Below, piece by piece: positions 30,551 through 61,594 of a stretch of DNA of 64,000 bases. The notes under the pieces are model-generated. The model saw nothing but the letters and a program-made list of their open reading frames with translations, made no database searches and was not told the DNA's origin. Source of the DNA: Ginglymostoma cirratum (lineage: Eukaryota); contig JAHRHZ010000062.1 of assembly GCA_024137785.1 (NCBI GenBank), forward strand, positions 27,266,244 through 27,330,243, in the 5' to 3' direction. How positions within the stretch are numbered: position 1 is the first letter of the stretch; every line of letters starts with the position of its first letter. Made by a program: the position numbers and the translations under genes.

Positions 30551-30749
30551 AGTCAATAAATGTGGGGCTGGAAAAGCACAGCAGGTCAGAGAGCATCTGA
30601 GGAGCAGGAAAGTCAACGCTTCGGGCCAAAAGGGTTTCGGCCCGAAACATTGACCTTCCTGCTCCTCAGATGCTGTCTGACCTGCTGTGCTTTTCCAGTT
30701 CCACATTTACTGATTCTAGCTTCCAGCGTCTGCAATCCTTACTGTGTCC
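30551..30749. mobile_element. Palindromic Penelope-tail element
   Basis: Arms of about 77 nt (30551-30627 and 30639-30715) are near-perfect reverse complements around gggtttcggcccgaaac. Confidence 0.85.
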
Positions 30750-31659
30750 ATGTCGCCATGCCTTTGAAGTTCTGTAAGTATTGTTTAGTCATCTGATAAC
30801 ATTTGTGACATTTTGTATGTCTAACTGGAAATTTGTGATTGACTATTAGCATAAGTGTTAGCTTGGCAAAATGTTTGGTATGGTTCATCACTTTCCCCAA
30901 GGAAAGCTCTAGGCTTATTGGAGATTGTAACTTTTTATGTGGGTAGTTATTTGGTTTTACTTTTCTGAGTCCACAACCTGTTTGGTACATTTTCTAAAAT
31001 GAGCAGTTATTTTGCAGTAAAACCATTTGTTTTTAATTACTGGGCAGTGTTCATGCTGCTAAGATTTTTTTTGCTCCCCGGTGTTAGCAAGGTCTTTTAA
31101 TGCCTAGTGTCTGACCTACCAGCTACTTTGGCTTACTCTGTGTTTCTTTTTGTGGTCCTATATGTCAAGAATTGAATAGATCCCAAAGGTCTCCTATCCA
31201 AAATTGATCTTCTTCATTTAAGATTGACCTGTACTACTTTCATACCTGTTCTTCACTTAACATTTAAATGACCTCCTCTAGAGTTAGGTCTTCTTTGTAC
31301 TTTAATAGATATGAAAAAGGCTCATGTACATGTGCTTACAATAACTTAGTTACTGATGAATTCTGACTTTAAGTTATTGTGGGTGCATTAGGTGCAACTG
31401 TCTTCAGTAGTCTGCAGAGATCACTAATTAAGCCATCTCAATGCTATAATTCCTCAGTTCAAGTTTGCTCTTGCAAGAATTTTATAAATCCTGAAATAAT
31501 AATTGAAGGCTTTCAGTGCCTCTTTCAATGTTGAAAATTGCTTATTTCGCTCCCTAGAAAGCAATATGTCATTTGCTATACTTCCAATTATACTGAATTT
31601 TATTAATATGTTTGGCCTCTGCCTCCAGTTTAGAAGCCATACCTTAAGCAATATTTTAG

Positions 31660-31980
31660 GAGCAAGTTACTGCAGATGCTGAAATCTGCACTGAAAATAA
31701 AATGCTGGAAGTCACAGTGGATTGGGCAGCATCCATGGAGAGAAAACCATGTAATGTTTTCAGACTAGATGACCCTTCTTCAGACTGAAATGTAGTGTGA
31801 AGGGGACGGCATTTACGCAACAGTGGTGTGCAGAGGGCGGGTGCTGTTACAGATATGGAGAAGTGGGGAGGGTGGCGTGCTGGAGGGGAAAGGATGTTGA
31901 TCATTCAAGTTAAGTGATCGGAATGTGAGAATGGCAGAACAGTGGTGTGTCTAACTGCCAGACTGGAAAGGACAGTCCCA
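31660..31980 (-). mobile_element. Penelope 3' region/tail
   Basis: actgcagatgctgaaatc...aatgctggaa...ggcagcatcc...gacccttcttcag (reverse strand: ctgaagaagggtc). Confidence 0.7.
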
Positions 31981-32114
31981 CTCCCATTTCTGAAGACGAG
32001 TCCTGACCCGAAACGTCAACTTTCCTGCTCCTCTAATGCTGTCTGGCCTGCTGTTTTCCTCCAGCTCCACACGATGTTATCTCTGACTCCAGCATCTGCA
32101 GTTCTTGCTATCTC
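31981..32114 (+). mobile_element. Penelope-tail short element with hammerhead-like core
   Basis: ctgaagacgagtcctgacccgaaacgtc (31990-32017), then the shared tail ctgctcctctaatgctg...ccagcatctgcagtt. Confidence 0.8.
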
Positions 32115-32489
32115 CCATTCTTTCCCTTTCTTTTAGCTTTACTTTTACATTCTCTCTCACTACGTTCTCCCCCACCACACACACCATCCCCCCCTCCCCC
32201 CAACCCCACCCCGCAACAACCCAGTGGGACTGTCTGTTCCTTCCAGTCTTCCAGTCTCACCATTTCTAAGCATTATTTTCTCAAGGATATCTCACTTTGT
32301 GTTATATTTGGCCTATCTTAGATATTCAATTTTCCTGGCAATACTATTTCAGCTACCATAACTCCCCAAAGTAATGTAATTTTACTTTCATTGAAGATTT
32401 TCATGTTGTCAATAGTTTACAGTTAAAGCAGTTTTCCCATGCTTTAGACAAAATAAACACAAAGAGGTGAAGATGTGGAAATCAGAAAC

Positions 32490-33256
32490 ATCTTCCAGCT
32501 TGTGCTGAGCTTCACTGGTGCACCGCAGCAAGCCTGAGATGGAGAAATTAGCCAGGGAACACAGTGGTGTGAAGTGACAGGGAACAGGAAGCTGAAGTTC
32601 ATTTTTGCGGACAGAACATGGGTGTTCTGCAAAGGGGTTGCCCAGTCTACATTTAGCCTCCTCAATATAGAGCAGACCATAGAGCAAATTATGAGCAGCG
32701 ATAGAGTAGACTAGATTGAATACAAAATAAATGAAAAATGACCCTGAGCTTCCTCTTGCCTGCCACTTTAACACTTTAACACACACTGTTCCCTGGCCAG
32801 TATTTCTGTCTTAGGCTTGCTGCAGTGCTCCAGGGAAGCTCAGCACAAGCTGGAAGAACCACATCACATTTTCCACTTGGCGACCTTGCAGCCTTCTGGA
32901 CACAATATCGAGTTCAATAATTTTAGGGCCCAAGCATTTTCTCCCATGTCCTTACCCCAAACTCTCTCACCTGGCCTTGTCATCACATGGGCTGCTCCTA
33001 CAAAAAAACCCATTGTCGGCCATTAACGGTCCCCATTAGCTGTTATTTATTTGCCTAGACTGACCTTTGGCTGCCCAGCTGTTTTTCTCTCTTTTCTTCC
33101 CCATTCCCCCCACCCCACCTTCGGCATATATACCAACCTCTTACTAGCTAAAACCAGTTGTGGCGAAGAGGTACTGGACTTGAAAAATTAACTCTACTTT
33201 CTCTGCACAGATGCTGCCAGACCTGCTGAGTTTTTCCAGCAATTTCTGTTTTTATT
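32490..33256. mobile_element. Penelope-like element relic: GIY-YIG endonuclease C-terminal part in inverted duplication plus 3' tail
   Basis: Minus 32490-32727 reads NLVY...GLLYIEEAKCRLGNPFAEH..SVRKN..LPV.CHF. Plus 32734-32925 reads LQCSREAQHKLEEPHHIFHLATLQPSGHNIEFNNF (PLE GIY-YIG ending in P.GLN). The tail lies at 33160-33256. Confidence 0.85.
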
Positions 33257-59060: not shown

Positions 59061-59479
59061 TCATTCCAGAAGTTATTACTGGATACCAATGACAATCAAG
59101 AACTGTGATTGGTATTTTTCTTCTGTAGCCCTGGATCCCCAGACAGTTGAGATGTAGCAGCCTTGGTGAGATCAACTGACAGAGAAGCAGTTGCTTTGAA
59201 TCTGCATTTGGAGCTATTATTTTATTGTACAATATAATAACCAGATCTATGCAGAGGGATGCGTAGACCACCTTATTCCAACAGGTGCAGGTAATGACAA
59301 CCTGAAAGTATATGTGTCATCTGCTGAAACCAGCAGTTGGAAACTATTTGTACGTGGCACCTCCTAACTTGTATAGCTCGAGCTAAACAATGCAACCCAA
59401 TGAGTCATTAGGAGCTTCAACTTGTATTTTTTTAACCTCACTTATCTGTAGAGTCTGTGGCCATTTTAATATTGCTGCA

Positions 59480-59617
59480 ATCCCCTTCCCCACCCCCATT
59501 TCTGAAGAAGGGTCCAGACCCGAAACATCAGCTTTCCCGCTCCTTGGCCTGCTGTGTTCACCCAGCTCCAGACCTTGTTATCTCAGATTCTCCAGCATCA
59601 GCAGTTCCTACTATCTC
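59480..59617 (+). mobile_element. Penelope-tail element with hammerhead-like core and 14-bp TSD
   Basis: ctgaagaagggtccagacccgaaacatc. TSD ttaatattg(c/a)tgca at 59466-59479 and 59618-59631. Confidence 0.85.
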
Positions 59618-59850
59618 TTAATATTGATGCAGTTTTAATTGGGATCTTAGGAGAAGTTTATCCTTGAACCTGCAGTCTAACATTTCACTGGTTAATTTCT
59701 GGCCTCCTATTTGATAGGGCTCAATGGCCTTGATAAGCTGAATGTTTAATTCTGACGATGTGGCGGGGGGCAGAACTGACCCAGGTGTAAACAATTGAAG
59801 CAGGCTCACAGATGCTGTTCTAGAATTTGAATTATAAACAGCCGATAGAA

Positions 59851-60058
59851 AAGAGATAATAGGTACTGCAGATGCTGGAGAATCCGAGATAACAAGGTGT
59901 GGGGCTGGATGAACACAGCAGGCCAAGCAGCATCATGGGAGCAGGAAAGCTTGACGTTTCGGGCCTAGACCCTTCATCAGAAATGGGGGAGGGGAAGAGG
60001 GTTATGAAATAAATAGGGAGAGAGAGGGAGGCGGATAGAAGATGGATAGGTGGAGAGG
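59851..60058 (-). mobile_element. Young Penelope-tail element with intact hammerhead-like core
   Basis: The reverse complement of 59953-59980 is ctgatgaagggtctaggcccgaaacgtc, identical to 47285-47312. Confidence 0.9.
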
Positions 60059-61420
60059 AGCTCCTTTTGTGCAGTATTTATGCTCTGAGTCACCGTATTC
60101 CTAAGAGAGGCTGTTACATAGCAAACTCTCCTGATAACAAGTGAAGAGTCTACAGGTCCTATTGTCATGCTTGTTAATCAGATTTGTCTCTGAGATTTTT
60201 TTGCCACAATATTACAAGGAGAGAAAGGAGGAGTGTATTCACTGGCTCTCTTGTCTACCATTGTTAATTAAAAGCTTTAACCTCACATTTAGCCTTTGGG
60301 TACTAAACTGTTAATGTGGGAGTAAGAAGACTGAATACTGCCTATTTTCAACAAGGCTGATAACGGCAGATAATGTTTAAGCATTAAAACTTTAAACGGC
60401 TAGAATTGTTACCAAACAAAGCAAATACTTTATGAAAAATGTGACATGTAACTTTTTTCCAGATACAGTAGTGTAATTTGTCCTTCACTGCTTATCGCTT
60501 AGAGCTTTAATGAGCCTTGGCAAGTCCTAACAATGCATGCAGCTGCAATACAAGCACCAACGGTTCCACCATCAGATTGGAATTCATGTACAGTATTTGA
60601 AAAGAGAAAGAAATAAATCGGGGCGGGGGGGTGCGGATAAAAAAGAATGAAAGAGGAATGAACAGATGCTGGTTAAAGAGTTGTCTTCTTAACTGTAAAC
60701 AAAGTATATTTTGGATAATGACCTTTTGTGGTAATGTCGGGTGCTGGTCCAAAGCAGTACTGAAGCATTTCTCAACATGCCTCAGGGACAAAATAATGGT
60801 AGAGCGAAGGCCAAAGAATTCTATTTTTAGTGGAATAGCAGAACAGATGCAGTCATGAATAGTCATATATTTGAAGGAAGGACGAGAGGCTTTAAACATT
60901 AATTTAGATAATGTATTTATTTAACCCTGGGAACAATTCCGAAACTATAATTCTGAGGGCATCACATGTATTTGACCTTTCAAATGAAGGAGAAACAACT
61001 GACGAGAATTTTACGGTATTGTACTTATGGCAGATTTTAGTGTTTCCTCATTTGTTCAAAAAGTTACAGATGTGCCCAAATGCAAATCACTTTTCAGAAT
61101 CTTATTCTGCCATTTCCTGATTCAGCAACAGCCGTGAACAGTTAGTGGTGTTCCAGTAGGAGACTTTTTTTTTGCTGCATTAGTTTAGTGTAGTCATCAA
61201 CAGCTGACAGCCCAGAGCAACAGAGGCCAGTCAATGAATCCTAATGGGAAGCAGCAGCAACAAACAACGGCAACGTTGCTTGATTGGCTAGTTCAAGGTC
61301 AAGTGTGTAGATCCTGCTCCATATGTGTGAACAAAGGGAAAACCTGCAAAAGTGAAGGCAAACTAATTAATTTAAATCCCAAGACCTTGCGGATCATTTA
61401 TTAAAGAGACTGATATGCAG

Positions 61421-61594
61421 TTAACAAGCGTGGGGCTGGATGAACACAGCAGGCCAAGCAGCATCATAGGAGCAGGAAAACTTGACGTTTCGGGCCTAGA
61501 CCCTTCATCAGAAATGGGGGAGGGGAAGAGGGTTCTGAAATAAATAGGGAGAGAGGGGGAGGTGGATAGAGGATGGATAGAGGAGAGGATAGGT
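61421..61594 (-). mobile_element. Young Penelope-tail element with intact hammerhead-like core
   Basis: Nearly identical to 59890-60058. Core at 61484-61511. Confidence 0.9.

Follow-up and report, generated by a model that had tools for sequence, protein, structure and literature searches.

What are the short hammerhead-like motifs strewn through the introns of a SoxD (SOX6-like) gene of Ginglymostoma cirratum, and do they act there as ribozymes? The locus is a stretch of 64,000 nt (contig JAHRHZ010000062.1, positions 27,266,244 to 27,330,243 of the forward strand; hereafter the window), in which a preliminary description made from the letters alone had listed 13 such sites and read them as a high-copy ribozyme family riding on Penelope-like elements (PLEs). 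We hold with good confidence that these sites are short end-pieces, made of pseudo-long terminal repeat (pLTR) and tail, of Neptune-type PLEs bearing a minimal type I hammerhead motif, that the inserted copies decay neutrally, that self-cleavage, should it occur, is probably of consequence only in the RNA of master elements, and that the copies would arise by the mechanism set out below.

Every one of the 13 sites exists, at about the position reported for it, and the pattern CTGANGA-N8–20-GAAAC occurs nine times in the window against 0.52 expected, a number reached in none of 100 shuffles; eight of these matches lie within Penelope elements and one, at 13121, is unrelated. A stricter core pattern gave five matches against 0.00 expected. 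The motif is thus far above chance, but only three of the 13 sites, 47285(+), 59953(−) and 61484(−), which share an identical 28-mer as had been noted, combine the full core with a four-pair stem II, the ACGU palindrome and GUC, the last correctly placed as ending at 47312 in the first of them. The palindrome described as preceding the cleavage triplet stands in these three, whereas the sites at 48003, 48046, 51242 and 59502 read ACAUC, a CpG decay by which it is lost, and five further sites (30632, 31755, 33902, 34248 and 53106; Table 1) are partial or lack a core base. Likewise, position 7, said to vary among all four bases, is T or A in the intact window copies and G or C only in decayed ones. 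Profile searches added decayed copies missing from the earlier list at 33156–33256(+), 29118–29220(−) and 3–49(−), together with a bare tail at 51591–51640(−).

Across the genome (4.36 billion bases searched), a single 29-mer occurs 31,575 times and a relaxed core pattern 230,113 times, compared with 3,306 for a reversed control, in keeping with the very high copy number proposed. The proposed subfamilies were also recovered: among 1.08 million readable bases sampled for this purpose we distinguished three motif families, A (55 of 85 motifs, in one cluster), B and C. The Penelope origin is borne out by longer copies, all outside the window, in which a reverse transcriptase (RT) and a GIY-YIG endonuclease share one frame that ends ~260 nt before the motif. 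GIY-YIG scored above the Pfam cut-off in L017 and L027, with RVT_1 just under it (E about 3e-06), and RVT_1 scored above it in L008; the family-B frame was detected by tblastn, its protein being about 50–60% identical to that of A in the copies of L165 and L166. The atlas score to RT/GIY-YIG clusters was 0.97–0.98. Families A and B both have a CX4CxxC linker between RT and endonuclease, a CX2–5CxxC linker being described as the mark of Neptune and Nematis (Craig et al., 2021; 10.1101/2021.04.23.441226). Moreover, motif, tail and the start of the long frame are contiguous in that order in L134, as expected for a pLTR. Judged from sequence, the carriers are the pLTR/tail ends of Neptune-type PLEs, the clade being placed by the linker motif only. 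Family C, found elsewhere in the locus and absent from the window, has a Penelope/Poseidon-like endonuclease and, in the stretch seen, no linker.

Some further details of these elements were noted. The copy at L134:3600–4200(−) starts at the point where many copies begin (see below), spans motif and tail, and reaches the beginning of the long frame; the ATG within its CTGATGA also opens a short frame, which stops after 14 codons. At L052:9153, L057:4428 and L107, family-C motifs with a U bulge and a longer stem II follow remnants of a Penelope/Poseidon-like endonuclease and seem to keep more upstream sequence than those of A and B.

The anatomy is that of a minimal type I hammerhead, as first described, with a CUGANGA and GAAA core, an NUH cleavage triplet, a one-base bulge and a short stem I. 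In all three families stem II pairs best when one base is left bulged after CUGANGA (A in families A and B, U in family C, where 25 of 25 pairs form with it and 5 of 25 without), and the first pair of stem II, G10.1–C11.1, then forms in 42/42, 20/22 and 5/5 unique motifs of A, B and C respectively. The ACGU palindrome that replaces helix III is the most frequent state in families A and C, and about half of family B has it, departures from it being CpG decay; stem I has U–A in A and B, A–U and C–G in C, and a third pair in only 15 of 42 family-A motifs. Stem II had been said to be kept while its loop varies, but the four hairpins quoted in support differ on one side only (U·G to U–A) or in the loop, so that no two-sided covariation is seen among these window hairpins; two-sided changes in stems I and II appear only between families A/B and C. 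Subfamilies differ at position 7, and the remaining core bases are constant. For sequences chosen by the core pattern and drawn from few lineages, this position-7 pattern and the two-sided stem changes fit selection on master elements. The predicted monomer fold is inactive (−9.3 kcal/mol, compared with −2.6 for stems I and II alone).

Do the inserted copies themselves show signs of use? We compared two changes at one CpG, C11.1>T, which keeps a wobble pair, and G12>A, which removes the base described as the general base (PMC6155905). The lethal change was found in 5,777 copies and the tolerated one in 5,608 (p = 0.12); since these counts are alike and 352 kb of the host gene hold 13 sense and 12 antisense motifs, with no strand bias, the inserted copies behave as neutral relics. 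A family of ribozymes selected within SOX6 introns is not what these numbers describe, and a host function in SOX6 was rejected on the same two grounds. That intronic copies are host ribozymes tuning SOX6 RNA would draw on the canonical sense-strand motif at 47285, 233 nt past an exon end, and on the existence of head-to-head pairs. However, the inverted arm at 47285 is predicted to pair with the core, the head-to-head copies lie on opposite strands, so that no same-strand dimer is possible, and the 32 motifs of a 464-kb region come close in density to the genome-wide average of one per 19 kb; together with the neutral decay and the even strands, this makes host tuning extremely improbable.

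Among 103 of 128 family-A copies (25 ending at unreadable letters were left out), 43 start within 0–9 nt upstream of the core (−37 to −28 from the predicted cut site), 12 in the next 360 nt upstream, five further upstream and 43 downstream, the last at 0.4–1 per nt; the start density is hence 4.3 per nt at −37 to −28, compared with about 1 per nt just downstream. Genome-wide, 3,721 copies start at −32 and 227, 139 and 121 at −7, −3 and +2 respectively (the last with a stricter pattern). This pile-up likely marks the 5′ start of the element RNA, and run-off of the RT at that end would be its simplest reading, given that the RT is described as beginning its copy at the tail, within the RNA (PMC11167929), and that Drosophila Penelope RNA is placed as starting 46 bp before an intron that ends at helix I (PMC2377424; PMC4209133). 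A G precedes 1,837 of the 3,721 starts at −32 (49%, 26% expected), as a copied cap would give, which is a weak indication. As an observation apart, a long run of pyrimidines that closes with TTTCAG lies ~55 nt ahead of the cut site at 60005–60040(−) and 61535–61570(−), resembles a splice acceptor and recalls the Penelope 5′ intron; no splice joint at this candidate acceptor was present among the poly(A) joints listed.

The pile-up could instead be made by the endonuclease cutting the element's own ATTT before the core, or by RT stalling at a C-rich tract, with no RNA start involved. The Anolis Poseidon endonuclease is reported to prefer 5′-ATT-3′ near the junction of open reading frame (ORF) and pLTR (PMC11167929), family A has CCCATTT at the peak, and ATTT microhomology is frequent at junctions; yet family B has CAGTT there and many of its copies, by eye and uncounted, also lose the shared sequence just before the core, and the G excess speaks against both cutting and stalling. 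We regard this alternative as rather unlikely. The 3′ ends, for their part, form two groups ~33 nt apart, near +61 to +72 and +98 to +100, in agreement with the PLE tail and with the pair of RT start sites reported for Anolis Poseidon (PMC11167929). In the family-A tail (e.g. 59847–59900) each of the two alternative 3′ ends is preceded by identical letters, TTATCT(C), which may signal the two RT start sites. A fixed start, two fixed ends, target duplications (9–14 bp at five of 11 window insertions, with a doubtful 8-mer at a sixth) and mostly short copies are also what a separate non-autonomous family of 100–130 nt, resembling short interspersed nuclear elements (SINEs) or retrozymes and copying as a unit, would leave. 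Short and long copies, however, share subfamily variants, so that the pile-up recurs in each subfamily, and the window copies are dispersed or inverted with no tandem arrays among them (no tandem finder was applied), which leaves such a family improbable.

A second, smaller class of starts falls at the predicted cut site. Among 95,942 tails genome-wide, 640 apparently start there; seven of 30 inspected were indels in intact motifs, leaving about 490, which exceeds the raw, uninspected controls at −7 and −3 by a factor of two to three and a half. In the local sample, five ends within −2 to +2 amount to 1 per nt, as upstream, with no excess at the cut site. The cut-site starts likely reflect rare cleavage, to judge from these junctions.

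These results suggest the following course of events. The RT-endonuclease of the element would nick host DNA, and copying would begin internally, in the tail of the RNA, at either of two sites (about +66 and +100 relative to the cut site). It would in many cases end after 100–130 nt, probably by run-off at the 5′ end of an uncut RNA that begins about 4 nt ahead of the core. The fold-back and head-to-head copies would result where both nicked strands prime, inverted pLTR arms being present among the copies. The motif is predicted to cut rarely, and then only in a dimer or with the aid of protein. A bolder form of this account, which we advance tentatively and would not put at even odds, is that most stubs are strong-stop-like copies of a capped, uncut RNA front starting 4 nt before the hammerhead, that the roughly half percent beginning at the cut site record cleavage in germ cells, and that the genome is thereby a mass record of the Penelope reaction.

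Several observations weigh against the reading we prefer. The Rfam scan gave no hammerhead family among its 10 matches at E up to 10, so that the proposed check with hammerhead covariance models failed to recover the motif, although such models are not expected to fit a motif that lacks helix III; weak microRNA matches in that scan stem from the fold-back arms. The lowest-energy monomer and dimer folds differ from the active hammerhead and no double hammerhead was returned, and the covariation between families rests on five family-C sequences from two or three lineages. As to the copying, GAT microhomology in inverted arms inflates the G excess at −32, and only six of 30 inspected loci had a script-found target duplication, one with a single extra G, one with an extra GAG and four with none. 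Unstranded poly(A) reads showed no site where many molecules begin or end: one run gave 41,668 and 34,811 reads, mostly other copies within host RNAs, and a second gave 11 and 14. No indexed record that contains the sequence is catalogued as RNA.

How much of this is new? The minimal hammerheads of metazoan PLEs (Cervera and De la Peña, 2014; PMC4209133) are described with the same type I core, an unpaired base between 9 and 10.1, G10.1–C11.1 and a palindromic 15.2–16.2 in place of helix III, the bulge, first pair and palindrome being their consensus. The extra A after CUGANGA, put forward as a lineage trait, is therefore no novelty. That study likewise reports genomes with several families, copies that are for the most part single and truncated, and opposite-strand pairs 100–700 bp apart; the motifs studied here differ in a stem II of 4–5 bp and a stem I of 2–4 bp. 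Our roughly 230,000 relaxed matches and the about 4,000 in coelacanth and 9,000 in Xenopus, obtained with a stricter descriptor, are not directly comparable, and the text consulted from that paper names no cartilaginous fish, while its supplements may list such motifs. Single motifs are reported uncut and dimers weakly cut in the same study, and dimer cleavage is credited to Lünse et al. in a review (PMC6765202). The endonuclease-bearing (EN+) Neptune and Nematis PLEs of Craig et al. (10.1101/2021.04.23.441226) are described with the same RT, linker, C-terminal GIY-YIG and pLTR hammerhead, and with an inverted 5′-truncated arm and a 30–40 bp tail on one end, as here; family C, with no linker in the stretch seen, is unlike them and looks Penelope/Poseidon-like.

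The PLE tail has been described before (PMC3846280; PMC11167929), and Poseidon of Anolis carolinensis (Frangieh et al., 2024; PMC11167929) is reported to have two internal RT start sites that give the tail, a hammerhead in the pLTR, and cutting and extension of both strands, all matched here. Its ORF starts within stem II, whereas the long frame here starts after the tail; its cleavage was shown to need protein, while that of the present element is a prediction; and the available text describes no 5′ pile-up for it. According to the same text, insertion in vitro does not require the Anolis hammerhead, and the cut site showed no RNA ends. Non-LTR retrozymes (bioRxiv 10.64898/2026.07.22.740005), reported in one chondrichthyan, share PLE-derived type I hammerheads but form tandem arrays, unlike the dispersed single or inverted stubs found here. 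In the literature searched, of which most subscription papers and repeat databases lay outside coverage, we found no description of this Penelope family or of a 5′ pile-up. Thus, bulge, palindrome and kind of motif are already published, and the motif and its location in SOX6 introns are no news; the fresher part is the 5′ pile-up and the junction record. One subfamily group supplies ~96,000 young tails, numbers that allow template start and cut site to be located by way of the junctions, and it is this record that merits a study of its own.

The window features are collected in Table 1.

Table 1. Element copies and exons in the window (window coordinates).
Feature	Position	Strand	Remarks
Fold-back family-A insertion	30548..30748	both arms	CUGANGA absent, + arm beginning within stem II; later start of − arm; 8-bp target duplication possible
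Old B-like stub, decayed	31692..31785	−	Core starts 31783; extra A in GAAAA
Older family-A stub, long tail	31985..32114	+	Core 31990–32017; GUC kept; stem II A·C mismatch
Decayed family-B stub	33156..33256	+	
Decayed B-like stub	33901..34002	+	Core starts 33902; G12>A
Family-B stub	34143..34281	−	Core 34277–34248; U4>C; 10-bp target duplication; start just 5′ of core
SoxD (SOX6-like) coding exon	46931..47051	+	
Fold-back young family-A insertion	47186..47378		Inverted long-tail arm joined to + arm; 11-bp target duplication
Canonical core of the 47186..47378 insertion	47285–47312	+	Predicted cut after 47312
Head-to-head pair of older family-A stubs	47933..48168		Cores 48030–48003(−) and 48046–48073(+); both AUC; 11-bp target duplication
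Older family-A stub	51239..51324	+	Core 51242–51269; AUC
Family-A tail fragment, no motif	51591..51640	−	
Decayed family-B stub	53033..53136	−	Core starts 53134; G12>A; 14-bp target duplication; copy begins at core
Second SoxD coding exon	57667..57746	+	
Family-A stub, long tail	59479..59618	+	Core 59502–59529; AUC; 9-bp target duplication
Young family-A pLTR end, long tail	59847..60060	−	~80 nt upstream of core; canonical core 59980–59953
Young family-A pLTR end, short tail	61414..61595	−	Canonical core 61511–61484

Beyond the two SoxD exons in the table, further exons lie up- and downstream, in order within the neighbouring 400 kb and including the high-mobility-group (HMG) box downstream; the closest solved relative of the HMG-box exons is SOX5, and the gene is one that we take to be SOX6. 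At 32409–32857, inverted arms (32491–32576 and 32772–32857) with a GIY-YIG-like remnant translation are probably an old family-B piece adjoining the stub at 33156. The end of a long interspersed nuclear element (LINE) reverse transcriptase, presumably CR1-like and with no Pfam match, remains at 50203–50640(−), and two copies of a tRNA-derived SINE, which we assume to be of the V-SINE/HE1 type, lie in opposite orientation at 37782–37969 and 63808–63992.

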